Assembly: GCA_964187785.1 (NCBI GenBank)
Contig: OZ076409.1
Location: 77,438,001 to 77,502,000 of the forward strand
Reading direction: 5' to 3'
Length of the DNA stretch: 64,000 nt
From: Amphiscolops sp. MND2022
Lineage: Eukaryota
In this document: positions 13,301 to 55,694 of the stretch, piece by piece
Layout of the letters: every line of letters starts with the position of its first letter
Position numbering within the stretch: position 1 is the first letter of the stretch
The notes under the pieces: model-generated
What the model saw: only the letters and a program-made list of their open reading frames with translations
Database searches by the model: none
What the model was told of the DNA's origin: nothing
Translations under genes and position numbers: made by a program

Positions 13301-13310
13301 GACTGCGCTA
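13301..13310 (-). promoter_or_regulatory. Degenerate primer-binding site (TAGCGCAGTC, TGGCG-type; tRNA-Ser-like by inference)
   Basis: Immediately internal to the 5' LTR; one change from a TGGCGCAGTC PBS. Confidence 0.6.
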
Positions 13311-22957: not shown

Positions 22958-23169
22958 TCAATTTTGAATGCATGCATGAATAACAGCATTACGTAACATG
23001 TGCGAAACAATATTTCAGCGGTTACTCTAGGAGAATTACTACTACTACTATAGCCTGTTTTTGGATCTTTTTCTCTCTTAATTCTCCTAGAGTAACCGCT
23101 GAAATTTTGTTTCGCCCATTTTACGTAATCAGTTCAATTGCTCTTATTCATGCATGCATTCAAGATTGA
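22958..23169. repeat. Foldback/hairpin, copy B, (CTA)4 loop
   Basis: Paralog of 13790-14004. Confidence 0.9.
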
Positions 23170-26990: not shown

Positions 26991-27638
26991 TAAATGATTT
27001 TGAACAGTATTCAAAAATGTTTGTAAATCTGTAGGAAGACTCACGCTTTGAACTCAGTGAAAGGTATAATTTATACCAGCAGTCTGATTAAAATATAACT
27101 TTTGTATTCTCACGAATAAGATGCGTTCTAGAACTTTGAATTAAACATTGTAACTAAAACGTCGATCAAACGTAGCATCAAAGTCAAAATGATATAGCAG
27201 TTTTATATCTATAGTTTTGTTTGTAAATATAGACAGGTATACCTGTTTATATTTGTGTCTCACCGATAGCCCTACGTTTCTAATGGCGGACCAGGCCGCT
27301 CCATCAGCCAAAAAATGATTAAAAAAGGAAAAATTATTATTTCCGGAAGATTTGTGTCTAGCAATTAAAACACACAGGATGCGGGAAAACAAAAAACATG
27401 TGAAAGTGTTTACAAAATGCGGGGGAAATATTCATCCAAGATACATGTATGATTTTACAATTTTGAACTAAAATTTGAAGTCAATCGAAGGAATGACTCA
27501 TCGATTTCGAATAAAATTCCAATCACAACATAACGCCGCCTGCCATGATTTCGCAGGGAAGAAATTAACAAGAGCGTTAAACACGCAAGCGCAATAAAAT
27601 AAGGCACAGTAAAAGAAATGTAAGGTTAGGGAACAAAG

Positions 27639-30600: not shown

Positions 30601-32919
30601 CGTTTTAGCACTAGCGTCAAATACAACACGCAATTTGGTGGTTGTACTATCTTCTTTCAGCACGCAATGATGAAGCAAGAAGCAGTTTGGAGAATTATCA
30701 ATCTCCCAGGGTTGGACCTTCTCCAAGTGTCCAAGGTCAATGAATTCTTGAATGAAAGCTGAATACTTTCGAGAAAGGTCGACATTATGGCGCAAAGTGT
30801 ATTCAAGACGAATGAAACGCTTCATTGCGTTCGCTTTCGAAAGTCCTAAATTATGGGGTCCATCTTTAAATGGCATCTGTACTACGAAACGGCCGTGTTC
30901 ATTGCGTTTTGTGGTGCTATCGAAGTGCTCTCCACAACGACGCTCATCCAAAGTTAAGTGTCTAGTTTCGGGGACACTTTCTATTTCCCAAAATTTCAAA
31001 AGGAGTTGGTCAGAGTCACAATTCGGAGTGGTAGTCATGTGGGATACAACGTTGTTGCTGCCAGACGAATACACAGGACCAGACACAATCCAACCGAATA
31101 CGGAATCCCGAATGCACAAGCCGTTGTCCTTTATTTTATTAACAAGCATAATGTCTTCTATAACATCTGCACCTAGCAAGTGATCAACCTTATTAGGAAC
31201 GTTGAAAGTGGGATCAGCTAAGTTAAGATTGTTCACATGGCGCATGGTCGAAACGTCAATTTCTTTACCAGGAATGGTATTGGAGATTTTTGGTATGAGA
31301 TGAAGATTAACTTCGATAGTATCATTCAACTTCACAGGCAATAAGCCTCGAGTTTTTTGGAAATGGGAAGAACCCATTGTAGAAACATTTATTTGGCTGC
31401 GCTGAGTTGGCAGCATGAGCGCCTTTGCAACATCTTCTGTTACGAAACTGGCTTGTGAACCGGAATCTAAGAGAGCCCGCAGCTTGATCGCGTCTCCCGA
31501 TGAATTCCGAATTGTTAAAAGAGATGTAGAAAGAAAAACAGTATTTATTTCATTGTCAGCACTAATGTGCCATGTGGTGAATTGCTTTGTAGACACCATT
31601 TTGTTGGAAGTTGAATTCATACTTGAATAAGTCTTTGTAGAGGTGCGTTGATCAGGGAGCTGTTTCTGAGGTCGATGAAGCAAGGTGTGATGTTTCATTT
31701 TGCACTCACGACAAGTGAACTTAGATGGGCACGCATAAGACTAGTGTCCTGATTGGAAGCAGTTGAAACAGAGTTTTTTGTCTTTTATGAACTTATGTCT
31801 ATCAGCAAGACACATTCCTTTGAATTGTGAACAAGCGTAAAGGCGATGATCCTCTTGGCAAGATTCACACGATGAGCCTTGAACAGCATAATTCTGAACC
31901 CTTTTGGTTAGAGTTGGGTTCCCTTGGTTGCAGAGAGATGTCACACTTGATTGCGGTGTGACCTTTGAGCCACCCGATTCGAGTGCACGACTTCTTGTGT
32001 CAAGGAATTTCGACAATAATTCCCAAGACAAAACGTCAGTGCCAGGATTATCCAGCTGCCACTGCTTACACGACTCTGGATCCATCTTCTCCGTCAGAAC
32101 AAAAATTAAGATAGCATTCCAGTGCTCTACTGGTTGACCAAGTTCAACGAGTGCTCGTAAACGCTCATTGGTGAGTTCCAGAAGTTTTCTCAATCCGAGA
32201 GCGGATTCAGTTTTCAAAACTGGCTGCGACCAAATTGCTTGCAAATAAGCTTGAATGATGCTCCTTTTATTTTCTTATCGATCTTTCATCAATGCAAAGG
32301 CAATATTGTAGTTTGCGTCAGTTATCGAGATTGAACTAATGAGTCTCGCTGCTTCACCCTTCACACAGGCTTTCAAATAGTTCAGCTTCTCTGAATTGGA
32401 GAGATGGGTATTAGAATCGACGGAGGCCTTGAATAGGTCAAAGAAACTCATCCAGTCAGTGTATGATCCAGTGAATGTTGGTAACTGAAGTTTAGGCAAC
32501 TTCAATCTACTCGATGTGACAGAGCTTGATGGAGAAGGGTCTGTTGAAGACTCACGCGGAGGTCTATCGCGTTCTTTTTTGTAATTCTCAATCAATGCAG
32601 ACAACCTAGCGATGGTAACACTAGCAGAAACATGGAACTCCGTTTGCTGTTCCAGTTCATTGGCTAAATCATCTTCATGTTCTATCAATAATTCAATTTC
32701 CGCATCAAACTTATGAATCATTGCAATTCTATCTTGTAATGTCTTCGGCAAAGCTTCACCTTGAAACAATTTAGTTGAAGAGTCAATAGCAGTGACCGTA
32801 AATTCATCAACTTTCTGTTACAATCTAGTGAAAGCACCTTTGTGACCACCTCGGATGCGAGTAAGATTTCTATCTTCAGTGGCTGGTTGTACGGAAGCAC
32901 AACTTTCAGTTACAGACAT
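27639..32919 (-). pseudogene. BEL/Pao gag-pol (gag, three Cys/His knuckles, PR, RT, RNase H, IN)
   Basis: ATG at 32919; KLPKLQLPTFTGSYTDWMSFFDLF; CESCQEDH, CFNCFQSGH, CRECKMKHHTLLH; RALLDSGSQ; ADVAKMYRQV; FYVDG (YVDD decayed); LFCDASEKAYAA; VGLDFAG; SDNGKNF. Multiple frameshifts and stops. Confidence 0.95.
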
Positions 32920-33061
32920 TTTTCAGATTACAATACAACACTATCACGAACAATAAACAAAGTAAATAATCCTCAAAGTCGAGTCGGATAGGCCACCGAT
33001 GAGCTAATCGTCCAGCGACCACACCGAACTCAACCCATAGGATGAAAAAAAACTTCTAAGG

Positions 33062-33754
33062 TTAAGTTGACTTCAAACTCTGCTCAAAAAGCTTCTTCAA
33101 TCTTCTTTTCCTTTGAGAAGGTTTCTTGCTGGGACTCATTGTATTTTGGGATAAAACTTTAAGATTGTTTCGGTGCTCCAAAACAATGAACAAAGACTTT
33201 AATTCAATATCCGCTACTGGATGAAGTCGGGAATATTCATTCAAAAGAGGAATATCATTCTGTTTTCTACGAGAAAGAAGATTTTCTGTGACTCGAAAAA
33301 CAATGAAATATTGATCACGTAGATCATCAAATGCATGGGGTGCACCAATACGTTCACAAAAGACTAAGGCTGTTAAACGAGATTTATATTTTAACAATTC
33401 AGTTGCTAATTCTTCAGGGGTAAGAGCTGTATTGTTATTTGATTTATGGGGAGTCAAGGTGTTGTTCAGAATGTCATGCCAAATAACTAATTGATTCGTA
33501 TTTTTACGAATACCATGATCCAGTAGAAAAGACAATTTGACCGTATCACTTTGAACATAGGGGTTCAAGCTCAAAGAAGGAATGGCTGTGATAAAGTTTC
33601 CAAGGGTATTTCGGTTATCAAAATCCAAGTTTTGTAAAGCTCGTTTTAGTGAACTTGCACTGATAACATTTATCATGAGTGAAGTTTTCGGGTTGCTAGG
33701 GGTAAGCTGAAGGTCGATCGGGGACTTCGTGAAAATGTGACTATCTGCATCCAA
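33062..33754 (-). CDS. Extra ORF between PBS and gag of the BEL element (230 codons from TTG; 204 aa from ATG at 33676), putative degenerate SGNH-hydrolase-like fold
   Basis: Uninterrupted frame with non-repetitive composition. Motif order VISASSLKR / AIPSLSL / VIWHDILNN / LVFCER / SRLHP parallels SGNH blocks I, II, III and V. The fold call is by eye. Confidence 0.65.
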   Translation of the reverse strand: MDADSHIFTKSPIDLQLTPSNPKTSLMINVISASSLKRALQNLDFDNRNTLGNFITAIPSLSLNPYVQSDTVKLSFLLDHGIRKNTNQLVIWHDILNNTLTPHKSNNNTALTPEELATELLKYKSRLTALVFCERIGAPHAFDDLRDQYFIVFRVTENLLSRRKQNDIPLLNEYSRLHPVADIELKSLFIVLEHRNNLKVLSQNTMSPSKKPSQRKRRLKKLFEQSLKST

Positions 33755-34057
33755 AATTTTAGGAAGTAATAATAAAGGACAAACTTTCAGGGGGGTCCAC
33801 AGTTTATTTTCACCGTCGAAAAAACGAAATGCCTTTAAGTTGTAAAATGGAAAGAGCTAACCGGGGAATGACGATCAATCGTGGATGAAGCTGACACTAG
33901 CAGGTTGAAGGGTTTGCAAGTTAGTTACTTGGTAATTAGTTACTTGACAATCGAGTGTTACTTTTGTAAGGACAACTTTTAGTACAAAGTTCCGAAAAAA
34001 GTAGTTTCTTTTCGAAAGTTCAAAGTTCGTATGTCCGGGGTCTATGGCGGACCAAAA

Positions 34058-34338
34058 TGTGTCTCACCGATAGCCCTACTTTTCTAATGGCGGACCAGGC
34101 CACTCCATCAGCCAAAAAATGATTATAAAAGGAAAAATAATTATTTCCGGAAGATTTGTGTCTAGCAATTGAAACACACAGGATGCGGGAAAACAAAAAA
34201 CATGTGAAAGTATTTACAAAATGCGGGGGAAATATTCATCCAAGATACATGTATGATTTTACATTTTTGAACTATAATTTGAAGTCAATTATTTGAAGGA
34301 ATGACTCATCGATTTCAAATGAAATTCCTTTCAGAACA
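34058..34338 (-). repeat. 5' LTR of BEL/Pao element (281 bp)
   Basis: Matches 18106-18386 and 27254-27530. Confidence 0.95.
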
Positions 34339-34577
34339 ATATTTATTTGTCATAGTGGTAAATTTTTTACCAATGCCGAGTCCGAAATTTTCTGATGTGA
34401 TATCAGTTTTTTTCTCAGATCTTGTTCCAGTGGTTCTTTCAGTAATTTTAGATGTTATTGTAGTGGTTCTTCGTGTAATTTTAGATGTTTTTTTAATGTT
34501 TTCGAAATTTTCAGTTGTCATTACGGTGGTTTCCTTCGTTTTTCATATGATTCAATCCGATTTCATGATTACAATTA

Positions 34578-34758
34578 TATAATTCCATGCGATTCCTTGC
34601 ATGGAACCATATGATTCCATGCGATTCCATGCATGGAACCATATAATTCCATACGATTCGATGCATGGAACCATATGATTCCATGCGATTCCATGCATGG
34701 AAACGGCATGAAATTATCGTATGGAACCATATGGTTCCATGCATGGAATCGCATGGAA
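34578..34758. repeat. 32-bp palindromic minisatellite (~5.5 units) with a terminal inversion
   Basis: Unit TATGATTCCATGCGATTCCATGCATGGAACCA at 34578, 34610, 34642 and 34674. Orientation flips at the palindrome ATGGAACCATATGGTTCCAT (34721-34740). Confidence 0.9.
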
Positions 34759-36891: not shown

Positions 36892-37638
36892 GATAATGGC
36901 ACCCTATACCCAACAAAATTTTCGAAGTTTGACGATTTTCTGAAAATTTCGTTCAAAAGTGACGTGGCCCTCAAACATGAGTTCACGAGGTACCAGTCCC
37001 GCAAAAAATCATAAAGAGCGTGGACAAGCAAAGCCCGCGAGGCGGAAAAAGTGACACGACGGTAAAAGAAGCGTGTACAACGTCACAGAATCGAGAAATC
37101 GTAAGCCCATGCGCTAATTGCCACGGTGCCCATCGTAAATCAGACGGAACCAGCATGTCCGAGTGATTGCAGCGCCCGAACCCAGGGTTGTGTCGAACCC
37201 GAGAATCAATGCCATGCCACCCTGAGTGATTTTAGATTCGCCAGACTGGATTTTCATGCCTTTTTGATGTGTTCATTGATTTGTTTGATGAATTCTTTAC
37301 TCGAGAGCTACCTTTGTTAATGTTAATGTCATTTACGATGGATTTCCATCTGGACCATTTAATTCAGTTCTATGCAGCTTAACCCTATTTCTACAGGCTA
37401 TTACAGTGACTATTACACAGTGGATACGAGGAAAGAGCGTAATTCATTTGACTAGTAGCAGTTACAGACCGGAACTGGTCAGAAAGCATCCTTAGAGACG
37501 GTTCTCCCTTCTCGGGACCGGCATTCCCTAGGACAAAATGAACTGGAATCATGGCGATCAGTCCCGGATCATTACCCATGGCTTCAGTTCCTCCACCCTG
37601 CCTGCGTAGCGAACAAACGCTAAGCGCTTTTCGTTACA
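36892..37638 (+). repeat. 5' LTR of giant Gypsy (~747 bp)
   Basis: Colinear with 54999-55694, plus an extra segment near 37000-37040 and small duplications. Confidence 0.9.
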
Positions 37639-40263
37639 TAGGAACATCATTTTTTGGCGACCACAGAGGGATCGTCTTTGGGAAGCTTTCCTTCATGGTT
37701 TTAAAATATCTGACACTCCGGTGTTCAGCACCAAGACAGTTTCGACTCTGAAGGAGAAGCCAGAGTTTTGCTCCTATTTTAAACGATTGCATGTATTCTT
37801 GGCCACTAGATCGAAGAAAACCCAGAAATCCCGAAGAAAATGCGTTTTCAGGTTCGAAACTGGCATTTTGAGGTTAGAAAAACCGTAAATGCATGTGTTT
37901 CAATGTCATGTTATGTCAGCCCATCAGCGGGTATTTGTTTTACAGGTAATGGCCTTCGTAGCACGTGGCTACGTGTGTTAACTGGTATTTGCAGCTATTT
38001 TCAGTTTTTCGAGCCATGTATGACAGGTACCGATGAGCGACAATCCATACTCCACCAGGGCGAATGGGATGCGAAATGGAGTGTCTGGGTTCGTTGATTC
38101 CCATTTCTCGTGGAGACGTCCGCGAGGGGTGAAATTTAGTGAACAGAGAGAACTAATCCTAACAAGCCTAATGGTCCAAACCGCAAGTTTCTGGCTGGTC
38201 TGGACATGGAGAAATTGCGTGGCGAAGATGCACCCCCCTGGACCAGTGAAGTCGCCTAGATGGATCATGGTTCGCGAAAATTTTGAAATTGCACCTTTCT
38301 TCATGGGGAATCGTCGTTGCAGGTCAGTGACTCTTTTTTACAATGTAACGTCACCCAGTGAAACGCTTTTGAGCGAAGAAAACAGATATTTTTGTAAAAA
38401 AAGACGAATTTTCGTGTTTTTTGTGCATTTTCTTGGTTGGAGCCTAGGCACTCCGTAAATCCAAATTAGCACTGCCAGTATGGTGGCAAAAGTAGCCTCG
38501 AACCTCGAGAGAGCTGAGAAAACTAATGCTCAATGGTTCTCGTAACCCTTTTAGGTGAAAGAGTGGAAATATGCAGTAAAAAAGCGCGCAAATTGGGAAA
38601 AAGGGTGGAAAGCACCCTAAAATCACTATGGCACCTAGGTGTAGAACCTGGGGCACTGTTGTAAAGAAGTTTCATGAATGAATCACAACCCCAGGGTACT
38701 GGAAATAGCTTTTGCTGATCGATTTACTGGTGTAGAGACCAGAAAAAAGTGAAATTCCTGTAATTTTGGCTGTTTTTGACCCGGGCGGAGAATAGTATTA
38801 AAAGCCCGATTAACCAAACCTCTAATCAACCCCAAGAGCCTAGGCGCTCTAGATTTTTGTTTTTGCAATAAAAATAACGCATTGTGGTGAAAACCGCGTG
38901 CAAAAATTCCAATTCAGTGCTGAGAAAAGTGGAAAAAACGCACTGAATTTGATCGAATTTCCACGAAACCGGACTGTCTGATTGCCAGGGTTGGGTCATA
39001 GAATCCCAAACCCTAGCTAAAGCGTGATTACATTTTCATAACCACCACTAAAATAAACCCTTGTACCGAAAATTTGGTGGGTATAGCTCTCACCAAAGTT
39101 GAGAAAAACTCTCTAACGTTTCGACCTAAAATAGTACCGAAATAACCGAAAAAAGCCGAAATTGTAGAGCCGACGGTGTCCTACACCGAACGGGTACTGC
39201 CAATCGAAAGTTGGTGATACTGCTACGACCCGTGGATCAACACGTTAACCCCATTTACCCTGCCATAACGTTTGTAGTGTCGACCTTCTTCGCCGATTTG
39301 TGGAAAAAGTGTCGAAAAAGACTTCAGTGTTTTTTCTAAAGTGATGTCCATACCTACCCGAAGTCCTCCGCAAACCCAAGCGCTGCAATTGGACTATCCT
39401 AACGGCATTGTAGGTACCAACTGGCAGCTTGTGCCAAGTTTTGTGTCGATCGATTCGATAGTCATCGAGAAATAGCCTGAGAACGTACTGTCCAAAAAAG
39501 GGTACAAAAAGGACGTTTTTTCAAAATTTTTTGGAAAGCCCCGGATACCTTAGTCGGAGAGTGAGAACAAATTGCCGCTCTCTGACATAACTGGCACAGG
39601 TTGGCACGCAGCTAGCAAAAAAACCAGACCGCTGACTGTATCCAGTGTTCAGAAATTGTGTAATTAGATCACATTTTGACCCCTATTGATACATAGGAGT
39701 ACCGCACGTCTGTGCTCAGGGAAAACTGTGTACAAGCGTCGGAGCCCAAATCGGTGCTCGATTCTGTGTACCTACGTGTGTGTAGGATCGTCTGGCCAAT
39801 TTTGAGTCAACTCCGACCACTAGGTGACGGACACGGGCCACTTGTGTTATTTTTGACACTGTTCGAGGAAAGTCAAAAATTGTCGTAAACCCTTCCTGAC
39901 CGTTTCATAGATAGTTTAACCCCGACCTGAGTTCGTTTTCCGGTCGTGTGTGTAAAAACCTACTACGTTTGCGATTTTGAGCCCGCTACGGCCCTTGGAA
40001 GCATTTTCGACCTTCGCGAGGCATTCCGTAGTTGAAAATTGCTTAAGTCAACACCGAGACGACTGGAGGCCTAACGTAGTCTGATACACTTCAGTGGCCT
40101 CTGGGAACGGATTGGGTGACCTCAGGACACCTCATAGTCAGGTTGGACGCTCGTCACACCAGCAACGCTTCGAGGGATAGGCACGGACGAACGGCAGTAC
40201 GGCCCAGTAACTCGAAACTGGGGATACTGGTGCATCATCCTGTGACGTATCTTAGATCAACAC

Positions 40264-42600
40264 GTGGATCATAATGTTTGGGCGGGTGTAGCAACCGTAG
40301 TCCGACTGTTCACGCGTAGCACGGAGGAAGGTAGCGAACCAAATTCGTCTGACGCTACCGATCCGAGCGAACTGCAAGAGATAAGCTCGACCCAACGTGA
40401 CAGCTCAGATACTATAAGTCAGGTGAGTCTGAGAGAATGGCCACCTACGAAGTCATTATCGACTGGTTCCTCCTTTTCAGAAGCAATGAGTGACTGTGTT
40501 ACTGCCGATCAGCAACGGCGAGAAGAGCAGAATGCTATGGCCTTAAACACACCCCTATCGGAAGAGCTTATCCGCACAGGACAATGGATCCAAGACAACA
40601 GAGGCGAGTTGACATCGCCTCAAACGGCTGGATTGTGGCCCAACTCCAACCAAACAGCAGTGGAGGTGACCCCTGTGCGCGCTGGGTGCTCAGGACACCC
40701 AAGAACAACGACAGCCCAGCTAGTAAAGATACCGATGCAATCTTGGAAGGCATGACTTATGTCGGTGGGATGAACTATGCAAAGTATCGTCTGGAGGCTT
40801 GTCGAGCGAAAGCCTCCGGCAGGCAAAATACGCGTCCCCCAACATTGTATGTACAAGATGAACTAACTCATGACGGTACCGCGTCCACTACTTCATCACG
40901 AAGGTCCTATCGGGCTGTCGAGGAAGCCGCTGCCGCACGGAGTGCAATGTTGCAAGCGGAAGCTGAAGCCCAACGAGCCCTAGCACGTCTGGCCGACACT
41001 CGTGCCGAATGCAATGAACAGCACAAGGTCATGACTGCAGAATTGGAAGCCCTGCAGGACTCCGTAAAAGGTAGCCTGAGGAGCGCAACCCAGCAGACCA
41101 CAGTGCAAGCTGCGAAAGTGGACGCCTGGGCTATCGTCTGGAGGAGATGAAGGACTTATTTCTCCAGCGCGAACTCCGCGTGGAAGCACGACTGGCGGAA
41201 CTCAGTGACCAGATACGTACTCAAAGTGGAGCTGTATCTCACACAAGAACTCCTGAGGTAGAGCAAACCGAATTTGCCGAACCTATTGAGTCCACGAGTA
41301 AGATGGTGCCTATGCGCAATCCCAACCCGTCAACAACACTAAAAACAGGCCCAAAACGCAGCCCAAAGCAGTCATACCGCCACCGATAAACATGAGAGCT
41401 ACAAAAGTGCGCGTGTGCACGCCCAACCCACTCAGTGATGTACCAATGCCACCGATGACGTCGCTGACCCGAACCCGGGATCAGGGAGTAGACCCAATGC
41501 CAATCACATCGTCGACCTTTGACCTGACCGACACCAGAGCAACTGCTGGCTCACGCGCTAGCAGCACAGAGGATGAAGCCTACGCTAACGCCAGGATGAG
41601 AACTGTTGGGACTATTTCAATGTTCTTGACCGCGAGCGAAGGAATGCTCAAAGGCAAGCCTTGCGCCAGCAGTACTCGCAAGAAAGATAACGCGAATGGT
41701 GAACTATCCGTGCAAGCCACTAGAGGCAGTCAAGACAATTCGCCAGCCCCTAGTGAGGGAGCGGAAGTGATATCCCCAGAGCAGCTGCGATTCACAGCCG
41801 CCATTTCAAAGGGAATGTCCAAGGAACTGGCCCCTCTGCTGGCTGGACGTGACCAAACGCAAGCTAAGCCTAGCGTCTATAAAGGATCCAAGGAAGGTTC
41901 CATTGATGGTTGGATCATTGTGATGCGACGTTATATACAGCGTACGCAAGCCAAGGCAACTCCTGATGATAAAGCCTGGAGCATTATCGGACACCTGGAA
42001 GGTGATGCTCGCAATTACATCATCAATAAAGCCGAGTCTGAAAGGGATACCCCCGATAAAGTATTCGAATTGCTAGCTAGTCGATTTGGGACTGGAGGCA
42101 ACCGCATGCAAGTGCGCCAGGCCTTCACCACCCGGCAGCAATCCGATAGAGAAGATTGGATGCAGTATTTGGACGCACTGGAGGGGCTTCGAAGCCAAGG
42201 CTTTCCCGAAGAGCCCGTTACAACCAAACGTTACGAGATCCTCCAACGCTTCATTGAGGGCATTCGTGATCCCGTCTTACAATCTATGCATCCGAGACGA
42301 CTGTCAGCGAACCTCCCACAGTAGAATCTTGCGATTTACGACCCGACAATTGCAGCGTACTAGACCCAAGTCTGTACCGTATGACCCCAGGTATGCCATG
42401 AGATCAAGGCCTCATCCCTTTGCACCATTACCACCCAACAAGATGGTGTTTCCTCAAAGGGTTCTACCACCCCTCCCGCTAATAACGCCCCAACAAATCC
42501 GGCGGCAGCACCACCTGTCGCACGCCCTCCACTAGGCGCTTGTTTCAACTGTGGTCAGACTGGCTACTTCGCTCGAGATTGCCCCAATCGCGACCAGGCT
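40264..42600 (+). pseudogene. Giant Gypsy gag (long N-terminal extension with an Ala/Glu coiled coil, capsid-like core, zinc knuckle)
   Basis: KPSVYKGSKEGSIDGWIIVMRRY...GHLEGDARNY...LASRFG...RQQSDRED; CFNCGQTGYFARDCP at 42541-42585. Frameshifted across ORFs 40264, 40584, 41147, 41392 and 42086. Confidence 0.88.
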
Positions 42601-42654
42601 CGCAAACCTGCAGCTGCGCCAGAACCAGAAGGAGTAAAAATAATTGCTGAAGAC

Positions 42655-44085
42655 GTGACCGATGGAATTGTGGATAACTATCCTGGAATTCGCCATGGCG
42701 CTCACTGTCGCAAATTCAACCATGTTGACTCACCGTGCACTGGAAATCTTGTGATTCCAAACGAAAAAGCCAATCGCTGGGCAGAGGTAGAGTCGGCAGG
42801 GGTCGCTGCCCAACCAGTGCCACTAGAGGATGACCGTGTGCTAATGCTACACCCAGAAGAAACACCCGCGTTCTACACCCCACTGACTATCACCTGCGGT
42901 ACAAAGCAAGTCCAAACCTGCCTAGAACCAACCACGTTCGACCCTCAGGGACGAACGTTGATCTCTATTCACCTGATGTTGACTGCAGAACAATTGCGTC
43001 GACCAACATTAACGTTAGCCAAACTTTGGGTTGAACTACAAGCCCTGTACAAACGCGTGGAGATACCCCGCCCCAAAGAGTGGTATACCCCAGGGGATTC
43101 CGACACTCTCACAACCTATTCTCCCGTGCCTATCTGCGCCACTATGGCGAGAGTAGATGTGATGTTTGAAGCCTGCGTAGTGGTGGACGACTTTCCTCCT
43201 GGAATCTGCTTGGGCGCGCAGGAACTCAAGTGTTACAATATAGATCATCAAGAACCTACTGGTGAGGCACGGATAGACGAGCTCGCCTCACTCGTAGTCT
43301 CCTTTGTTGTGCCCCAGGCGGCACCAATCCCTCTGCGAGGACCCGTTGACACAGGCTCTGGCGTATCTATCCTAACCTTTTGAGCTTTCAACCGTATAGC
43401 CGCTCAAACAGGCACTGTACTGAAACCGTACCAAATTGACTTGTATGCCGCCAACGGCTGGACACTCAAAACCTTTGGGTTGGCAGAACAAATCCGCTTC
43501 CAGTTAGGAGGCTACGAACTTGAAACCAACTTCGCCGTGGAGGGTGATGCCATGGGCGTGGAGGATTTTCTGCTAGGACGTAACTTCCTCCGAACCTACC
43601 AGGTGCTCGTGGATCTAACCTCCATGAAGATTGTGGTCCGCGCGCCAGTGAAACCTGTTTGGCATCATGCACATACACAGGTAGGTGTTGCTTCCGTAGC
43701 CACTCCCGTCGCTTTAGACAGCGATTTGGTTCTACAGCCATTCGAACGAACGGTGGTCAAAGCCAAATTGGTCACCAATGATCTTGAACCGTTGATATTC
43801 CAAAATGTGATAATAAATGCGGCAATAGCTGACATATCGCTGCAAAACATTGTGTTTTCAGAGGACAGCGTTGCCACTGTCAGTGAAGCAGACCATGTTT
43901 TTGTCAGCATGCTAAACTTGACCAGTAACCCACAACGGATACCAAGGGGAACCCAACTGGCAACGTGGTTCCCGTGTCATTGGTATATCGGGCCATCCCA
44001 CAACAGTCTACACCTAAACCCACCCAACGAACTCAGGTCGATAATGACCAATTTGCGTTTGTTAACAAAATTTATGAAGAGATGA
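42655..44085 (+). pseudogene. Degenerate protease-like repeat, intact-motif aspartic protease, and dUTPase-like beta segment
   Basis: First unit ITCGTKQVQTCLE...FEACVVVDD.PPGICLGAQEL; second unit VDTGSGVSIL...F.V......DFLLGRNFL; then LVLQPFERTVVKAKL...VSMLNLTSNPQRIPRGTQLA. Stop at 43381. Confidence 0.75.
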
Positions 44086-44204
44086 ATTACGATACTAATT
44101 CACAATAAACTTCTTCTTTTGAATTCGAGTTTTTGTCCTCAACAGACCCCACCGAGGAAGGTCTTTCAGAATGCGAGGTACGTGAGCGTACGGATCCCTA
44201 ACTC

Positions 44205-45660
44205 ATGGCTCCAGTAAAGGGACCTGAGACACAGCTTAAAGAGGAGGTTCAGAACCTATGGGGTCCCAAAGCCAGCGCCTCACTAGAAAACATTTTGACC
44301 GAATTTGACGACTTGTTCATGAAATACGAGGCTGATATTGGTCGATGCACGATAGCCAAACACCCCGTTGAACTAGAACCAAGTGCAGTACCTCACCGTG
44401 AGGGTGCAAGACGCATGTCCCCCGAAAAGGCAGAACGTGACAATCAGGAGGTACGTAATTTGCTCGCATTGGGCATGATTCAGCCCTCCCTATCACCTTG
44501 GGCGAGCGGGATAGTCATGGTCAAGAAAAAGAATGGCGAGTTACGCTTTTGTTGTGACTTCCGCCCTTTGATTGAAGTTACCGTCAAAGATGCGTATCCA
44601 TTTCCTCGGATAGATGAAAACCTCGCCAGGCTGGGCAAAGCTAAAATCTACACCAGTATAGATCTAGCTTGGGCTTTCTGGCAAATCCCTGTCCGAAAAA
44701 CCGACCGTCAAAAAACTGCCTTCGCCTGCGAGCTAGGATTTTTTGAATGGCGACGCATGCCCTTTGGGATGTGCAATGCTTCTGCCACCTTCCAAAGAGC
44801 GATAGCCCGGGCGCTACGCAAGATCGTGAATCGTGAAGGTAGCATGGTAATGGCCTAAATCGATGACATCGTTATCGCCACAGAAACAGTGGAGGATCAC
44901 ATGGTACGTCTTCGTGAAGTTTTTGAATGCTTGCGTGAAGCTGGCTTCAAAACGAGAGTCGCTAAATGCGACTTCATGAAGTCCGAGATCAAGTACCTTG
45001 GTCTCGTAGTGTCAGCAGAAGGAATAAAATCCGATCTCAAGGCTATCTCAAAGCTACGTGACTGGGAAATTCTGCGTAACAAAACGGAGATGCAAAGCTT
45101 CCTAGTCTTTGCCAACTATTACCGCGAGTTTATTCCTTGGCACGCCAAATTGGTGGCTCCCTTTCATGCGATCACCGGCATCAAAGCCACTTTTGCCTGG
45201 GGATCTGAACAGCAATTGGCTTTTAACGAAATAAAAAAAGCACTCATCGATGCCACCGCTCTTGAGCAACCGGATTCCGAAGGAGAATTTGTGCTGGATA
45301 CTGATGCCAGTGCTGTCGCAATTTCAGGCATTCTTCATCAGTGGCAAGGCCCCTCGGGAGAAAGGCGCCTACGCTCCATTGTGTATGGCAGCAAAAAGTT
45401 TACTGCCACCCAAGCCAAATACGGAGCACCGAAGCTAGAAATGTACGCGGCATATCTCTTCCTTGTCAAAAACCACAGCTACTTGTGTCCACGAAAGTTC
45501 ACGTTGAGAGTGGATAATCAAGCACTTTCATGGCTAAAAACGTATTCCACGGATCAAACTCTCATTGGTAGATGGATCATGGCATTGGAAAAATACCATT
45601 TCCGTGTCGAACATAGACCACGAACACAACATCGCAATGCCAATGGTTTGTCCATACGCA
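44205..45660 (+). pseudogene. Giant Gypsy reverse transcriptase and RNase H
   Basis: SPWASGIVMVKKK, RFCCDFRPL, IDLAWAFWQI, MPFGMCNASATFQR, A*IDDI (YIDD with TAA at 44856), KYLG, LDTDAS, KLEMYA, LRVDNQAL, HRNANGLS. Confidence 0.95.
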
Positions 45661-46399
45661 CCAATGATTGCCGATTGAGAGAACGACAGCTTGAAAAACT
45701 ACCACCAGTTGCAGAACGTTGGAATATCCTATCCCAAGACGAATACGAACGGCTCCCCACCGTACCTTGGTTTGATCAGCAAGTACGGGTGATTCCTAAT
45801 CATCCCGAGTTACCGATACACTTGAAAAATCTACAACCAAACCCCCTGATCTGGTTCAACGCGTGATTCGTCGCTCAAAACGAGCAAAGAAGCGAGCTAA
45901 ACAGAACGAAGCCTTACACAGTCCACTACCCTCACCGCCACCTCCCATCCTACACGCCCTCGAAGACTTCTATCCCGATTACCCAGAGGATTGTATAGAT
46001 GTCACTGAAGAAGCACGACATGATTACTTACTACCCACGCACGCAACCAACATTGCCTCACGTACCACCTATGACGTGGCCAACACCAAAGGCGCAGCAC
46101 TACAAAATGCGCCTACCCACATCAAGCAGGCAGTAATGGCTATTCGCAGTGTGAATACTGAGCTCCACGAACATACCCACACTGTCCATGGCATCAAGGA
46201 CCTGGTGCTAGCCCAAAACCGAGACGTTCATGTCCTAGCGCTCAAAAGGTTGGTCCATGGGGAAGGCATAAGTCAAGACATCTTTCCTGAAGATGTATGT
46301 ACATTTGCCCGCAACTACTTCAAACAAAAGAAGGAGTTACTGTTCTTGAACTCAAATGGTGTTCTCTGTGTAAAATACCCGCTTTCACAGCGTCCGCTG

Positions 46400-47480
46400 C
46401 ACGAGCCATCCTGTAAGGTTTTAATGCCTCAGTTGTACCAACACGAGATCCTTTTTCGTGCGCATGATGCCATGGGACACCAAGGCATTAGTAAGGTTGT
46501 GACGCGAATACAAAGACGCCATACCTGGCCTGGGATACGCCGCACAGTTGGCGAAGACGTCAGCCAGTGTCTCACTTGCCAACAGGTTAGAGACAAGCCT
46601 GGGGATGTACGCTTCCACCTCTAAAGCATTCAAAGTGGATATTTCAATGAGTTAGTGCAATACGATCATTTGAAACTCTGTCCCACTGATGACGGTAAAA
46701 CCGGGATCCTAGTCATAATTGATCACTTTTCAAAATTCGCCAAAGCCATCCCATGCAGTCATAACGAATATGACGCCATCAACACTTCCCGACTATTGCT
46801 TCACAAGTGGTTCGCTCGTCATGGTACACCCACCCGGATGCGATCGGACAATGCTCCGAATCTAACGGCGGAAGTCTCCAATGAGTTTATGAAGGCCTCT
46901 CAGGTCACCAAGGTAACCTCCACAGCTGGCCATCCACGTACGCAAGGTTTAGTGGAACACCAAAACCGTTCTTTGCTCACATTGTTACGTGTTTTCTGTT
47001 CGCGTCGAATGCGCGACTGGGACCAGCATCTGGATGAGGTCCTTGGTGCTTAAAACTCTACACCCCATGCAACAACAGGGCTCTCACCCTACACGTTAAC
47101 CAGAGGTACAGAAAAGGCAATACCTCTCACATATTTATACCCTGAGTTTGCCACTCAGTCTTTTCCTACACACGGCGCGTATGTAGATCATGTGTTGGCG
47201 CGCCAACAAGAAATTCATGATCTGGTGCGTAGAAACACACACCAAGCTCAGCAGCGGCAGAAGCTCAAATACGACCGCGCAATAAGTGCCAAAGTCTACG
47301 CGAAAGGCGATTTGGTTTGGGTTTTATGTCGGTATGTTCCCCAGAAGGGTTCTCCCAAACTAATGCGCGCTTGGCGTGGCCCACACAGAGTGGTGCACAC
47401 CCTGCAAGCTGGACGCGTTTACATCCTTGACACAGGGCAAAAGGTCCACTTTGAGCGTCTCAAACCGCATAATAGTGGCC
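46400..47480 (+). pseudogene. Giant Gypsy integrase with GPY/F-type C-terminal motif
   Basis: AHDAMGHQG...WPGI...CLTCQQ (HHCC); QYDH; IIDHFSKF; RSDNAPN; GLVEHQNRSL; KLMRAWRGPHRV...VHFERLKP. Confidence 0.92.
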
Positions 47481-47856
47481 CCCTTGAACTTGTCGCCACT
47501 CCTCTTGACACCGGCGACGTAGCTGTAGTCATGGACCCGGAGCCCCAACACTCTATAGAACCCATTAATGATGACTGTTATAAACTTTCCTATAAAGCTG
47601 AGCAAATACTTTCAGGGCTTCGAATGCTTCGTTACCTTCTCGTCAGCGTCACTGGATGGATACGCGACTGCGCACAAAGCTGCGCGCGGGAGGAACCCGC
47701 CAGCATTACCAGCAATTCGACTACTCCCCACACAGATGAAGAGACGCATGACGAGATGCTTCCCATTCCCACCTACTCACCACAACAATTCACACCCAAC
47801 CCCAACCCGAAGCAATCACCGACCCATCGGCACCTGACTTATTATCAGATGTATCA

Positions 47857-49608
47857 ATGTTCACCGGCCTCCCGCAACTTTTTTCCGATCATGAGCCAAT
47901 GCGCTCACCTTCACCACACATTTCACAGTCAAGTAAAACTCCGGAGCTATCCCCAATGGGTACATCTGCTCCGCTGCTGACTCAACCCTCCTTGACCGAC
48001 TACCTCGGCAACTATCTTCTTTGGCCAGATCTTGCCAAAGATTTTACTGCGCCTTCTTCCCGTCCATCTACACCTTCAGAATCTATACCCTCGGCCAAGT
48101 CACCACAACCCCCACCCACCGCTCCTTCTATCAGAAGGGGGAGGGGGAGACCTCGAGAAAAAACCCATCAGCAAAAAACCAAGGGCAAAACTGTGCCCAA
48201 AGCACGAAAACTAAAACCGGACACCCAAACGGAGTCTCAGAACCGATACCAACTGAGACACAGACGACAGCCCAGATACAAATGTGGCACATGTGGCGTA
48301 CGCGGTTGCGTATGCGTGCCGGTAATGAATGAAAAGCGGGATGTTCCCACTGGAGCCCGATGTGCCCTTCAGGAGGGACGGCAACATACCGAACAAGTTC
48401 ATCGCATCATCGTACGAGCAGAAAAAACCATCTCTGGGGTGGAACGGACTGAAAAATACCCAGTCGAGACAATTTTGCAACGGATCGCTGTACCGGGCGT
48501 TGCAAAAGCACCATGTCCCCGGTTCAAAGAATGGACCAGTGATGGCAAGGGCTTAGAGTTTACGTTGCCCACTGTGGTACCTCCGGTACCTCCCTGCATT
48601 GTGTTCGGACCATTTAATTTTGAAAGAGGACCGGTGCAAATGGCCAGGTGCATCACTGCTGACCTATTACTTGATCGGTATGGAGTGGAAGTGGAACCAG
48701 GCGGTGTCTACAGCCCAGCCCCATACTGGTGGCTCATGGTAACCGCCTCCCGCGTCGACGCGTTAGTGGATCCGCAATATTTGCTACAATGCTTAGAAAG
48801 ACTCAGCACCTCCACGACAGAAAACCTGATTCTTTGTTTCCACTTGGTAGATTGGTATCGAGGCAAGGTGAAGTTCCGTTGGTGGTTAGAGCTGATCATC
48901 ACGTGTTTCACTGACTATCCGCGAATCCGTTTGCTGAACGAACGGATCCATACTTTTGAGGAACCCCTACAAGTCAAAGCAGCGATAAGCACGCTGGACA
49001 TCTGGGTTCGAGCGAACGTAGACAACCAAGCACTACCACGCTCTGTATGGCAGGATCTAGCTGGCATACAAGGTCGTTTACCACGTGTGTGTATACCTGA
49101 GGACAATGGACCTGGTCGAAAAATAGTGTATCCGGGTAATCTGCGTCCCGACACAGTAGAATACATCCCATACGATACCACTGATTTTCTACAAGCTGAA
49201 GGACATATTGCCCTGACGTGTCCAGCGGACTTGGAAACGAGTTCGGCAGCGCTACGCTACATCTTGCGGGATTGCGGACAAGAACAAGTGTTCTCATTAC
49301 GCCCGCAATTCGGAGAAATACTTACTCTGACCCCCACGATTACCAATTAACCCACCCAAACAATACACCTACTGATCACACACGCAAATCAGCGTGCGCC
49401 GTTAATAGCTGATGACTTCCCACTTTGCTTGAGGAAGTTGGTGGCATGGCTAGAGGATAGGGGATTTTCTCAGATCAATTTTCCCATACTGGACCCTGAA
49501 AGACCAGTAGACTCACTAACAAACCTGTATCGGGTGATAATGGACTTGTTCGTAGACACGAACATACACGTAGTACTGCACAACCGCGTGTACGTGTCTA
49601 GGCCTTGA
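47857..49608 (+). pseudogene. Post-integrase extension: Pro/Ser linker, AT-hook, CxxC-x3-CxC cluster, two tandem TARG1/Poa1p-like macrodomains (one premature stop at 49348)
   Basis: RRGRGRPR (48133-48156); KCGTCGVRGCVC (48280-48315); macro-like 1 at ~48598-48939; macro-like 2 at ~49156-49590. The frame reads through TAA to ...IMDLFVDTNIHVVLHNRVYVSRP* at 49608. Confidence 0.75.
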
Positions 49609-49887
49609 AGTGGGTGTTAGACCACCTTGTTGCCATCTCCCAAACTAAAGGTAGCCGTGAACCACGGTTATTCCAGATAATTTTACTGTGCTCTACACTC
49701 TACTTAAACATTAGTTACTTACTTAAACCCTATAAAGGATGCCTTCAGCATTCCTGTAATTAGTTTATCGTTGACTTTGATGATGTTTTTCGCTGACGAG
49801 TTCCCCTAGGGAACCGGTTTTAACAAGGCACAAATCAGCATCCACATAATGGCTTTAACGAGTACCTCTTTTTAGACCCATGATAAG

Positions 49888-52800
49888 ATGGCATACCATC
49901 ACACGGCTTCTGCAGCTATGCCTGCCCAACCCCAACCCCAACCCAATCAAAACGCTGTTCGAACTCAGCTAGTTAATCAAGTGCAGTTCATTGAGGAGAG
50001 ACTGCGCAATGGCATTTCGCCGGCAGCTTTGGCCGGGATCACTGCTCTCCTAGCACAGATGGAGACACAGCCCACCATACCCAGTTTAGCTGTATCCATA
50101 GTAGCCGATGTGGCAGGGTACAAACGTACAATGACCTGTCGAAGTGGAGTATGGGATGGCTATGACCTAACCCACCCTTTCCACGACGACAGATCCACTG
50201 CAGTGAGAGTCCCCAGTATACAAACGACCGTCGAATAAGAGGCTACCCTGCGAATTCCGCTTGCAAATGTGCCCATGCCACAACCTTTAAACCCGGCACA
50301 TCTAGTGATTCAGCCTCAACCGCAGATACACCCGCAATCGGGATCTCAGCCGATGTATTTGCCGAGTGCCCAACCAATAGCACCATCCTCAGCCCAAGTA
50401 GCGCCCTATGCCAGTGCTCCCGCAGCCCATGCGCCACATATGGTTCTCAGCGCCACCCCACGATTAGAGCAAGAAGCCGGCACTTCCAGTCCAATGTCCA
50501 AAGCCAGAGTACAATCAGTGCAGTCCTCCGCACCACCCTCCATGCGGTCAGGCGAAACTGCACCTGACATGTCGCACAGAACCCCTAGCGAACAAGCTGT
50601 AATCCAAGCATTGCAGGCAGTAGCAAATTACCCCGAATCCAGGGAGTTCGTAGAAACAGTATCTAGACAAATTCCAGGGTTGCAGAATCTTTTGGGAACC
50701 GGGGAAAACAAGAGGGTTGCCTGACTACGAGAGAAGGTCAAGGTCCAAGCACCGATCCACTCACTCCTAGTACCAGCGCGACCAGAAACTGAGCACCCTC
50801 GCCAATACCTGGATTGTCAACCGTATCTGATGAGGAACTTGGCCGCAAAAGGGCCTCGCCACATGAGCTGACTCAGTCGGTTGGCAACAGCGATATCCCA
50901 ACGAGCCGTCCTCCGCCAGACAAGCGAAACAGTGTATTACGCTCTGTGGTGATTCAAGAACCACCAAAAGTAGGCTACCATGGCATGTCCGAACACCAGA
51001 TGACAATGAAAGAAGTAATGGAACTATATGCTCCGAGTCCCGCATCCGTGCCAGAAAGCCCCGACAATTCCGTGCATTCGAGCTCCTCAATAGCAAAGTC
51101 TGGGAAGAAATTTACGGACCCACCGTATTATCCACAATCGGACAACGTATCAGGGTCTGTGGTAACAAGAGATGCTAATCGCATCTGGCAAGTCGCCCCC
51201 AAACTGAACGAGCGACAGTACCGTGACCGCCAAAGAATACCGACAACTAGCACCCATCAGGCTCAACTGCGAAAGCTATCGATAACTGTTCATTTGTCAC
51301 GAACCTTGCGCCCCTTCGACGCCGATACAGGCGAAGCAACGTGGGAACAACGAGTGATTAGCCGATTGACAACGGCTCACGACAACTATCTTCGTCCCAT
51401 GCAAAACAATCTACACGAACAATGCAACGCCAGATACTCGCTACGGCCAGGTGAAACCTGGGAAACCCACAGCCAGTACCCCAGGAACCTGAAAGCAATG
51501 AAGCCAATGTCGAAAGAGGCAATTCAGCGCACACGTTACTGCGTAATGATTGATTCAACTGTCCCATGCGACCTTCCTCTTGACAACGTCATTCCTGACG
51601 TATTGGTCGTAACCATGCCTTTATCGCGACTGCCCGAAATGGCAGAAGTAGCCACAGTCTTGTTCTCCCCCGAAGGTCCCCCGAACGAACCTCCACCCAG
51701 GCGAATTATTTTTGCCAATTTGAGGGACCACATGGCATGCGAAGGTCTATTGGAGAACCTGCCTCACTTGCTGCGCGAGATGTCAGCCAACGAAGCAGCT
51801 AGAAACGAGGTGATTGAAGTATTACACCGAGCGGCGACCGCGATGGAACGTACAGCAGAATTGCTCCGCACACACCTGAAAGTGCCGGCCTTGTTTGTCT
51901 CTCCCCCTGGAATGTTATATTGGGAAGGAATGTTCCAACAGTTCGTCTATATGCTAACGGAAATTTGCAGTGCTCGCAGTATTGAATTCTACTTGTGCGC
52001 GCCTAACTTGCGCGTCGGGAAAGCCGACTTACGTCCTGCTGCAGTCTCAGTACATGCATACTTGGCAGCAATATCACGCCTGTTGCAACCTGTGGAACGT
52101 CGTGGCAATGCCCAGCTAACGTGGGATGATGCGATATATTTCGACCATGGAATGCGTCTAGGCACGCTAACCTTCGATGAAACGGGGAAGCGAATTAGCT
52201 CAGAAACAACCCTAAAAGAACGCGAGAATATGCGCAGATACAACTGGCTAGTACGCGAAGCACACCCCAACACTATCAAGGCAGACCTTGCAGCAGTCTG
52301 GGATCAGCTGAACAGATGGCCACTTAACCGTGAGGTCGAACGGACCATTCCCCTAGTTCAATTCGCTGACAATACCGAACTCGTCAAAATGCCGTTGGGC
52401 ATAAGACACATCGTGGCCCATGAGGCCGTGACCCTCAGCATTTTGGTTCAAGCCAAGGAGGCCACTTACGGAGATTGGTACAATGATCGCCCAGCCACGG
52501 TCACCCTAGAAATAGCCGCACGGATCTTGTCTGTTTCTTTCTATGCAATGCTGACAAATTTTGGATTGGGTTGGCACATGGACGTCATTGCAGACGAGTT
52601 CAACCTAACCGACGGACAACTGCAAAAAATCACTGAGGTACTCAAAGAAACTTCGGTGAACGAGGTGTTAGCCCTTGCGCTAGCCGTTGGGCCTACCAAG
52701 TTCGTGGCTGGTCCGTTAGCCATCGTTGTAGATTTGGACACATCTGGTGGAGTGTTAGAATTTTACACATACCTAGTTTTGGCTCAAGGAAAGCTAGCCA

Positions 52801-54149
52801 GCTTGCTTGGGTGTGGGGAAATTCTCTTCACACAAAACGTGCACAACTACACAGAGCCTTTGTTCCGAATGAGAGCTTCCGTACAACACTGGCTCTATTC
52901 AAAACTGATCTATGCATCAGGCTTATTTGTAGGAGTGGACCAAGCTCAACCCCTACACGATCCAGACACGCAGCTGCCTCGTGAAATTCCGGGCTTCCCG
53001 ATGCCGCAACAACTGGCTGACCTGACGCTAGCCGAGGTGGAAGACTTAGTTCAGTGGTAGCTCCTGTCTTAATTCCAATCTTTGGAGCTCTTGGACTGCT
53101 ACGCTATCCAACCAAGCCTGTATCCCTAGCAGTGCATGTTGCAACGGTGTCCATCTTCACATACCTTCAGGGGAGCCCGCCTATGAGCTATGCACAAATG
53201 ATACGAGAAACATACGAAATACCCCAAGCATATACCACTATCGAGACCGAACAACAAGCAGAGGAGAATATGATGGGTGTTGTCCGTGCCCGCTCGCGCA
53301 AAGCCGCTGTTCTACCACGGTCCCATCAATTGGTACAACGCTCCTGTTGACCTGAATGGACAGCAATTCCGGGTTCCTTGGTCGTCAGATTTCATCAAGA
53401 TAGTGGTAAACTCTTGTTTACAGCTCAGCCGGCATATCCGTTCGGACTACATGTTTAAATTCATCCAGGTGCCAAATCGCTACTGGAAGGAGCCAGTGGG
53501 CTACCCTCGCGCGCGCCCAATCGGACGCGGGAAAGAACTGCTGGATCACCAATTACGGCACATAGACGTAGCCAATGTACCCAAATGGATTCACGTGGCG
53601 GCACTAGTGCGTGATCGCAACCTGTCACGTCGAATGGCCCACTTACAATACGAGCCTGCTTGGCGCCCACAAGGACGCATGATTATGTCTGGGGATATGC
53701 CGTTGTCCTTATTGGACATAGTGAACCAGGTGTTAGGCGCGGAAATGCGCGCTGAATGGGATGAGGAATGCCTCAATCTGGAAGTCAGCAATTTCGACAT
53801 ATGGAAACAAGCTTGCGCACTTTGGAAGCAAGCTGGCTGGGTATCAAAGCGTGTAGCCCTAGCAGCCAACCATCGTGCTGAAGAAGAACGCGTCGCTCGA
53901 TATGCCCCACAACCGCCACAGCCTTCTACTATGGCGATGTCATTAGAACAACCATTGACGGTAGAAGCCAATCCAAATGAAGCAGAGGTTGCAGAAGATG
54001 AAACAGCTATACCTGTAACTCCTAGTCCTTCTTTAGAACATGCAGCAGAGCTGACTCCTAATGTAGAGCTGGCAGAGCCCATCGGTGATTCACCATTGAT
54101 ACCGATGTCGAAACTGTTGTGCCTTCGCCAGTCCGACGCGCGTCTGTGA
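49888..54149 (+). pseudogene. Giant Gypsy ORF2 in the env position (~1,400 codons when stops and frameshifts are bridged): Pro/Gln-rich N-terminus, SGNH-like segment, long helical region, acidic tail
   Basis: Abutting same-strand ORFs 49888-50238, 50269-50724 (same frame), 50814-53060, 53054-53350 and 53277-54149. SGNH-like order CVMIDS / VTMPLSRL / IIFANLRDH / LFVSPPG / DLRP at 51534-52088. Confidence 0.7.
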
Positions 54150-54998
54150 GCGATGCCTCACCTCCAAGAGAAGTCTCTCCTCGAAGCAGGAACAAATCTG
54201 CTATTCAATGAACTGTTAACGCTTTAGTGAATCTGAAACTTCATCAATCAATCGAAGGAAGCTAGGCCTTCCGTAATGAAACCTCTAAAGAAACTTCACA
54301 GCCTTACTACGGTGCTGCACTCAATTGGTGCAATTTTAGTTAACTGTTGTTAGTAAGATATTTTGATTTAGATTTATGCCTCGGGTGTATGGTTATAGAG
54401 TGCGCCTGCCCCTTTTGCCAGCATTACGTTAACAAAGCTCTTGAAAAAGAAATGATCAAGTTAACAATGTCTTCTTTCAACAAACGCCTTTGGCGTTGTC
54501 CAAAAAGAAAATCCAGGTGCGAAAGCACAGCCAAGCCAAAAAAAATCTTTTAACTCTAATCGTTACCCTCCAGCTGAGTCTTGTATACTCTATCGACTGT
54601 CTGTTTGTAAAATGGAGCTTATACGCTCCTAAAAAAGATGTTTTAAACGAAAACTGCAGAAAAAACGGAACTCTACAAAAAATAGGACAAAAGACATTTT
54701 AGCAGGCACTTGCCGCAAAAGACATTTTAGTCTTCACTAGTGCTGAAAAAGGCTGAAGCCACCTTAGAAGCTCAAACTCTCGAGCTGGTGCTACGAACGT
54801 CTCGATTTTTTATGTAAAAATATTAGGTCTTGTAGTAAAATTGCAATAAGATCCGAAAAGGCGATGTCTCCAAAGTGGCTGTTCTATGCAACGGCACATC
54901 AACTTCAAGATGTATCCACAGCATGGGCAGTGTCCTGCCTTCAGACGGGAACCCCCGATGCTTGCCAGGGACGACAAGCCAGGAGCCCAGGGAGTGGA

Positions 54999-55694
54999 TG
55001 TAACGGCACCCTATGACCAACAAAATTTTCGTTTGACGATTTTCTGAAAATTTCGTTCAAAAGTGACGTGGCCCTCAAACATGAGTTCACGAGGTACCAG
55101 TACCGTGGGGCGGAAAAAGTGACACGACGGTAAAAGAAGCGTGTACAACGTCACAGAATCGAGAAATCGTAAGCCCATGCGCTAATTGCCACGGTGCCCA
55201 TCGTAAATGAGACGGAACCAGCATGTCCGAGTGATTGCAGCGCCCGGACCCAGGGTTGTGTCGAACCCGAGAACCAGTGCCATGCCACCCTGAGTGATTT
55301 TAGATTCGCCTGACTGGAGTTTCATGCCTTATTGATGTGTTCATTGATTTGTTTGATGAATTCTTTACTCGAGAGCTACCTTTGTTGATGTTAATGTCAT
55401 TTACGATGGATTTCCATCTGGACCATTTAATTCAGTTCTATGCAGCTTAACCCTATTTTTACAGGCTATTTACACAGTGGATACGAGGAAAAAGCGTATT
55501 TCATGTGACTAGTAGCAGTTACAGACCGGAACCGGTCAGAAAGCATTCTTAGAGACGAATCTCCCTTCTCGGGACCGGCATTCCCTAGGAGGACAAAATG
55601 AACTGGAATCATGGCGATCAGTCCCGGATCATTACCCATGGCTTCAGTTCCTCCACCCTGCGTAGCGAACAAACGCTAAGCGCTTTTCGTTACA
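54999..55694 (+). repeat. 3' LTR of giant Gypsy (696 bp)
   Basis: TGTAACGGCACCC...CGTTACA preceded by the PPT. Confidence 0.95.

Follow-up and report, generated by a model that had tools for sequence, protein, structure and literature searches.

A stretch of 64,000 nucleotides from Amphiscolops sp. MND2022 (contig OZ076409.1, positions 77,438,001 to 77,502,000; hereafter the window) contains an 18.8 kb Ty3/Gypsy element at positions 36892-55694. This copy is dead and heavily broken. In the reading that we favour, it derives from a clade of large elements in which the Gag-Pol polyprotein ends in a macrodomain related to human TARG1; this domain probably travels with the integrase (IN) and binds host ADP-ribose marks.

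The case for a macrodomain comes from the end of the Gag-Pol frame, where three segments follow the integrase:

47620..48330, plus strand, low-complexity integrase tail, with an AT-hook-like GRP motif and a CxxC..CxC motif
48595..48936, plus strand, first and more degenerate macrodomain-like repeat (P 58.8, E 9.4e-5 against the second repeat)
49156..49608, plus strand, TARG1/OARD1-like macrodomain closing the Gag-Pol frame, with one stop in this copy

A profile of the last domain (macro2), built from the window's own copy with its stop as X and from four relatives, matched only human TARG1/OARD1 structures in the PDB below an E of 0.4, over the whole domain and with an E of 2.5e-6. Compared with the C-terminal domains of seven distant relatives, the same profile gave a P of 99.1 and a reversed control of 0.09. 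A fragment of one distant relative matches TARG1 at 2e-26, and four distant proteins match Pfam Macro. The single tail sequence gave no match in the PDB, and the ESM Atlas returned matches to the tail only under 0.9, one of them with Macro in 22% of its members. Judged by these profile comparisons, the last domain of the tail is a TARG1 homologue over its whole length; the macrodomain-bearing integrase tail described in an initial annotation of this DNA is confirmed. The domain ahead of it, at 48595..48936, looks like a second, more decayed macrodomain copy.

The macrodomain is shared with other elements. Relatives were collected by a search with the reverse transcriptase (RT) and RNase H (RH) region, and are represented here by the 120 proteins listed out of 439 matches; 61 of these are matched by the macro2 profile, none of them among the named fish, plant, algal and arachnid proteins. 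A search with the tail returned six longer proteins, all with integrase domains. The relative P0230, an intact protein of 3,113 aa from a sister family, has an RT-RH region 91% identical to that of the window and is colinear with window positions 40465-49599; the integrase tail is therefore not a nested insert. The suspicion that the 47.5-54.2 kb segment might be a nested insertion unique to this copy thus fails for the Pol tail, which lies in frame in intact relatives. Similar lengths, of 2,970-3,115 aa, are found in 45 of the 120 listed relatives, with RT-RH regions at least 74% identical to the query. As read from their sequences, intact relatives encode a single frame of about 3,100 aa, comprising a Gag extension, capsid, knuckle, Asp-less protease copy, protease, beta-rich module, RT, RH, linker, IN, disordered tail and terminal domains. 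The parts upstream of the tail map to the window as follows:

40465..41750, plus strand, N-terminal extension of Gag, broken here, poorly conserved (15-19% identity between families)
41750..42590, plus strand, capsid-like (PNMA) region and CCHC knuckle (PNMA E 0.003, zf-CCHC E 1.7e-4)
42880..43300, plus strand, first protease-like domain, without the catalytic Asp motif
43330..43650, plus strand, aspartic protease with a DTG motif
43651..44000, plus strand, conserved beta-rich module, perhaps dUTPase-like (a weak likeness; Herpes_ORF11 E 0.033 in the relative P0303)
44330..45660, plus strand, RT and RNase H, broken here, with a 3-residue insertion before the YxDD motif
45660..46400, plus strand, long variable RH-IN linker
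46420..47480, plus strand, integrase (HHCC, core and C-terminal part), broken here

The order gag-PR-RT-RH-IN (PR, protease) was thus recovered by domain searches, in which Pfam detected the knuckle, RT, RNase H and integrase, the capsid and protease weakly, and nothing notable past the integrase. The PNMA match is stronger in the relative P0231 (E 3.3e-8), a protein in which the whole Gag region is also tandemly duplicated within one frame. Both the extended gag (40465..41750) and the doubled protease of the initial annotation were confirmed, the latter by an hhalign comparison (P 91.3, E 9.5e-7) against a reversed control of P 0.7. A second protease-like domain precedes the true protease in all 12 clade proteins examined, and the catalytic Asp is present in none of these extra copies. 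No match in the PDB was found for the dUTPase idea of the beta-rich module. The insertion between RH and IN, previously taken for an accessory module, must be given up as a domain: the distance between RH and IN is 207-1003 aa in ten clade proteins, versus 124-195 aa in six outgroup proteins, and the extra sequence varies among clade proteins and holds no conserved domain.

Two features of the terminal domains bear on their possible function. Firstly, the catalytic residues of TARG1, which we take to be Lys84 and Asp125, are not maintained in the window's family: the Lys is replaced by His or Arg in all five rows compared, and the Asp is kept only in P0307. Distant members retain the Lys and a GCGxD loop, and P0319-P0321 keep both Lys and Asp. 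Because these catalytic residues are replaced, the window's family would act as an ADP-ribose reader, and those distant members in which they persist as an eraser. Secondly, two clade members, P0336 (3,697 aa) and P0340 (3,930 aa), end their Pol in an Upf1-like AAA_11/AAA_12 helicase and have no macrodomain there; since the helicase stands in the macrodomain's place, the C-terminal slot is exchangeable. No terminal domain was visible by eye in P0333 and P0341, and P0300, a chimeric clade protein, matches GDSL downstream of a truncated integrase, with an E of 8.8e-7 that falls short of the curated cut-off.

A Gypsy element is copied by way of an RNA that is packaged into a virus-like particle, and its integrase carries out integration. 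We propose that the tail would stay on the integrase, like the chromodomains of chromoviruses, and that the macrodomain would bind ADP-ribose marks on host chromatin or on defence proteins, thereby guiding or shielding the integration complex. The available sections of one source state that TARG1 acts at DNA damage (PMC4695847). A different role, that the macrodomains are mainly cytoplasmic counter-defence enzymes or decoys directed against PARP-type silencing, as in RNA viruses, and have no tie to integration, is the strongest competitor, although we regard it as rather unlikely. It would suit the TARG1 Lys and GCGxD loop of the distant members, the helicase found in that slot in P0336 and P0340, and the part that ADP-ribosylation plays in L1 silencing through SIRT6 and KAP1 (PMC4695847, in the sections available). 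It fits less well with the replaced catalytic residues in the window's family, and with a domain that lies behind the integrase and AT-hook-like motifs, which we take to be the place of targeting modules.

In a tree of RT-RH sequences (51 rows and 419 columns, namely 49 of the 120 listed proteins, P0206 and the window; the omitted rows are mostly near-identical family copies), the window falls inside a 30-row clade with support of 100/100 and a stem of 0.56. The 3-residue insertion before YxDD is present in 28 of the 30 clade rows, with the other two unparsed, and in none of the 21 other rows, one of which was unparsed. The outgroup consists of unnamed or host-labelled proteins, with no named reference elements, so that the clade could coincide with one that is already named. 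Named Gypsy clades of GyDB and Repbase include Tor, CsRn1, Gmr1, Osvaldo, Mag and the mollusc clades. Where the clade is present it is abundant, with protein clusters of 448 to 2,541 members. In a metagenome scan 80 of 589 loci were kept, and the clade marker was found in five of the 71 that could be parsed. Searches with P0230 of metagenome and viral contigs, and with alignment A5 of viral contigs, found no related locus. The two long loci among the five with the marker, the distant metagenome contigs L001 (21.6 kb) and L002 (23.8 kb), carry gag, a pol with a macro-like end and then a third open reading frame (ORF) in sense orientation, of 1,808 or 1,900 aa; no long terminal repeat (LTR) pair was visible in the contig DNA examined.

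Behind Gag-Pol the element carries a further gene:

49888..54149, plus strand, ORF2, about 1,420 codons, in four pieces here, with a conserved core and a possible dead SGNH fold at about 51520-52170

Its 4.26 kb agree with the second ORF of about 4.3 kb that had been annotated. Intact homologues of 1,426-1,456 aa exist, with 42-51% identity and in clusters of 1, 581 and 657 members; in the two large clusters, seven of 15 and five of 15 listed members are full-length. Between the two families, identity per 100 aa is 36-54% across residues 501-1200. The search gave 347 representatives at E ≤0.001; those listed, 150 in number, are all fragments (68-571 aa). A nested insertion as the origin of ORF2 is very unlikely by these comparisons, given the intact homologues in large clusters and the recurrence of the layout in L001 and L002. 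ORF2 has no match in Pfam or NCBIfam, and is thus a large conserved protein without a family match.

The ORF2 core may be a catalytically dead SGNH fold; we find this fairly probable, but it is suggested and not shown. Colinear motifs for SGNH blocks I, II, III and V can be recognised in the core by alignment only, and the core aligns block by block with a domain of L002. At the putative catalytic His position there is Arg, with Cys or His in single fragments. The best result, a shuffle test of the core against L002, gave a z of 4.1, with none of 300 shuffles reaching the score, and the helical region after the core gave z values of 1.8-2.0, equal to a control. The third ORFs of L001 and L002 are homologous (E 7e-11) and have SGNH-type motifs by eye and no Pfam SGNH match. 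P0300 gives a short, weak match at its end (E 0.002). The L002 third ORF (9403-15102) also shows a weak match to IBR (half-RING) at residues 851-901, with an E of 7.6e-4, below the cut-off.

In our proposal the ORF2 protein would be soluble and accessory, translated from an RNA of its own that is likely spliced. Its putative dead SGNH-like domain might bind lipid or RNA while particles are assembled or transported; the ZfL2-1 esterase is the analogy. Splice signals are compatible with such an RNA:

40420..40428, plus strand, the only perfect splice-donor match (7/7) on this strand of the element, just before gag; its function is presumed

The donor lies at 40423 and the acceptor ranked first of 552 at 40480, by gag, and a strict acceptor pattern has three matches, one of them 13 nt 5′ of the ORF2 ATG. 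The minus strand scores as high in the splice-site scan. L001 has a donor-like site followed by the top-ranked acceptor just before gag (3730-3765), as in the window. From these signals, splicing or trans-splicing of an ORF2 RNA is plausible, though unproven.

Several results weigh against this picture of macrodomain and ORF2. Between P0230 and P0194 macro2 is no more conserved than the disordered tail (46% and 45% identity), and it exceeds the tail only in comparison with P0256 (44% versus 28%). The first macro repeat is weak, with a P of only 3.3 against distant macrodomains. The linkage of close ORF2 homologues to pol rests on the window and on two pol-tail chimeras among 189 proteins of the ORF2 search. 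ORF2 profiles found no match in the PDB, the ESM Atlas gave no usable match, and the SGNH reading has a single weak PHROG match, for P0002 (E 0.22). The shuffle test that gave 4.1 for L002 gave a z of 3.0 for an integrase control and 0.8 for L001, comparisons of ORF2 profiles with the distant third ORFs did not rise above shuffles, and SGNH profile tests gave no significant score. By a second score the ORF2 acceptor does not rank among the best 15 of 552, and codons alone may account for the gag acceptor.

The element had also been described as virus-like, with accessory proteins that might serve chromatin targeting, host-defence interference or membrane interaction. That ORF2 is an envelope or membrane protein of an infectious, env-bearing element is very doubtful. 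ORF2 does occupy the env position, a donor site lies just ahead of gag as in retroviruses, and two of three close homologues have a hydrophobic stretch near residue 900 (Kyte-Doolittle 2.1-2.3). However, no family match to any fusion protein was obtained, hydropathy and motif scans found neither a hydrophobic segment at the N-terminus nor a furin motif in the interior (a furin-type motif is absent or at the extreme C-terminus), and peak hydropathy is 1.73 in P0003 and 1.73 and 1.38 in the distant third ORFs. An errantivirus-type env, with signal peptide, furin site and C-terminal transmembrane anchor, was likewise not recognised in ORF2 by a hydropathy scan alone, and in the envelope sense the term virus-like is not supported. 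That the accessory parts are passengers, either decaying captured fragments or a nested insertion peculiar to this copy, would suit the broken copy and the modest conservation of macro2 but is most improbable, given a tail in frame in dozens of intact polyproteins, an ORF2 open over 1,426-1,456 codons in families about 40% identical, a layout that recurs in L001 and L002, and an element without internal repeat or second LTR pair.

The ends of the element and its leader are as follows:

36892..37638, plus strand, 5′ LTR, 747 nt, first two bases GA, not TG (LTR comparison)
37655..37672, plus strand, site resembling a primer-binding site, beginning TGG, 16 nt past the 5′ LTR
37673..40245, plus strand, non-coding leader of about 2.6 kb
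54989..54998, plus strand, purine-rich tract directly 5′ of the 3′ LTR
54999..55694, plus strand, 3′ LTR, 696 nt, TG..CA ends (LTR comparison)

The LTRs, annotated from the start as a pair of 0.7 kb, are 96.8% identical (671 of 693 aligned bases, with 6 gaps). AAAA on both flanks is a possible 4-bp target duplication, though in low-complexity sequence. No priming tRNA was identified for the primer-binding-like site, which presumably resembles an Arg tRNA. The gap of 16 nt between LTR and primer-binding-like site (37639-37654) is larger than usual among Gypsy elements. The expected 2.6 kb leader is present, extending to the first long open frame at 40246 (2.85 kb if counted to the ATG at 40486); a blastx search of it against the proteins fetched as relatives gave no match, nor did Rfam and tRNA searches of the window. 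The G+C content is 43-54% in the element, versus 33-42% in the flanks. Self-comparison revealed no further repeat or second LTR pair inside the element, and no second copy in the window. Gag-Pol is broken here into seven frame-shifted pieces, with 13 stops counted within matches, and ORF2 into four pieces with three stops, counts that are possibly inflated by overlapping match ends.

Other repeats occupy the rest of the window. The length annotated for a Mag-like copy, 5.8 kb, agrees with repeats spaced 5,634 nt apart when the repeat itself is added. A BEL/Pao element (27254-34338, minus strand) has a 264-codon frame at 33062-33856, placed after its 5′ LTR and ahead of gag, in which SGNH-like motifs can be made out by eye; the frame has no Pfam SGNH match and no significant match to other esterase-like domains. 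BEL/Pao and Mag-like neighbours suggest that the host is an animal. A tandem duplication of about 9.15 kb (about 11989-30000, 98-100% identity) spans part of the Mag-like and BEL elements, and is either a recent duplication or an assembly artefact. A 1,075-nt unit that contains 33-nt sub-repeats occurs three times within positions 1-3200, and at 34544-34758 a 32-nt unit is repeated about four to five times, with an inverted copy after it.

Macrodomains are a familiar feature of RNA viruses. A clade with both intact and degenerate versions offers natural pairs for asking whether ADP-ribosylation restricts or guides retrotransposons. A wider proposal, which we put forward tentatively as possible and not as probable, is that of an undescribed and widespread Gypsy clade of about 19-24 kb, with an exchangeable anti-host module at the integrase end (eraser, dead reader or Upf1-like helicase) and a conserved giant SGNH-based third gene. 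If that is true, LTR retrotransposons, like RNA viruses, would face ADP-ribosylation as a genuine signal for defence or targeting.

The clade of large Gypsy elements to which this copy belongs is apparently undescribed, being set apart here without comparison to Repbase, Dfam or GyDB. No description of it, or of a TARG1-like tail on a Gypsy integrase, was found in a literature covering few subscription journals and excluding supplements, which may list such elements. The available sections of the DARTS paper (PMC8775202) and of PMC6338049 make no mention of macrodomains, and those of an acoel genome paper (PMC9911081) give no element structures. Surveys with a limit on LTR distance, such as 11 kb (PMC11889832, in the part available), can miss this clade. 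Giant Gypsy elements such as Burro (PMC6431247) are already known, as are third ORFs that encode an esterase, in Vesta (PMC5408684). What stands of the giant undescribed lineage first proposed is a large Gypsy lineage whose accessory modules belong to the family; it sets no size record, as Burro exceeds 30 kb (PMC6431247).

Among solved structures the RT-RH region best matches yeast Ty3 (PDB 7q5b, E 1.6e-101); the next non-Ty3 entry is at 1e-46, and the RT is therefore closer to Ty3 than to retroviruses or caulimoviruses. Ty3 shares the domain order of the element, lacks its accessory modules and has about a third of its length. A chromodomain behind the integrase, the chromovirus feature, was not found in the element or its relatives by domain searches. 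Burro/GYPSM1 of planarians has a 4,873-aa ORF with MATH, BIR, ankyrin and BCL2 domains and an in-frame env (PMC6431247). Like the present element, it is a giant animal Gypsy with a very long single polyprotein, accessory domains and a dUTPase-like module between PR and RT (weak in our element); in contrast, its MATH, BIR, ankyrin, BCL2 and in-frame env were not found here, and the available text on Burro reports no macrodomain (PMC6431247). The Vesta, Juno and TelKA elements of bdelloid rotifers, with LTRs of 159-551 bp and a GDSL/SGNH esterase ORF3 in Vesta families, resemble it in having a non-env third ORF behind pol and a dUTPase between PR and RT (only a weak likeness in our element), and no macrodomain or doubled protease is reported for them in the sections available (PMC5408684). 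Vesta-type esterases keep their catalytic residues, whereas the ORF2 of about 1,430 aa has a putative SGNH core without the His. A retroelement precedent for a binding role is the ORF1p esterase of ZfL2-1, whose SGNH domain binds phospholipids (PMC3905857, in part); ZfL2-1 is, however, a non-LTR element with an active enzyme, and its homology to ORF2 is unproven. Finally, human TARG1/OARD1/C6orf130 (PDB 4j5r, 2l8r) matches the last tail domain over its whole length, and differs in that the domain of the element is fused to an integrase, is probably duplicated and has its presumed catalytic Lys and Asp replaced.

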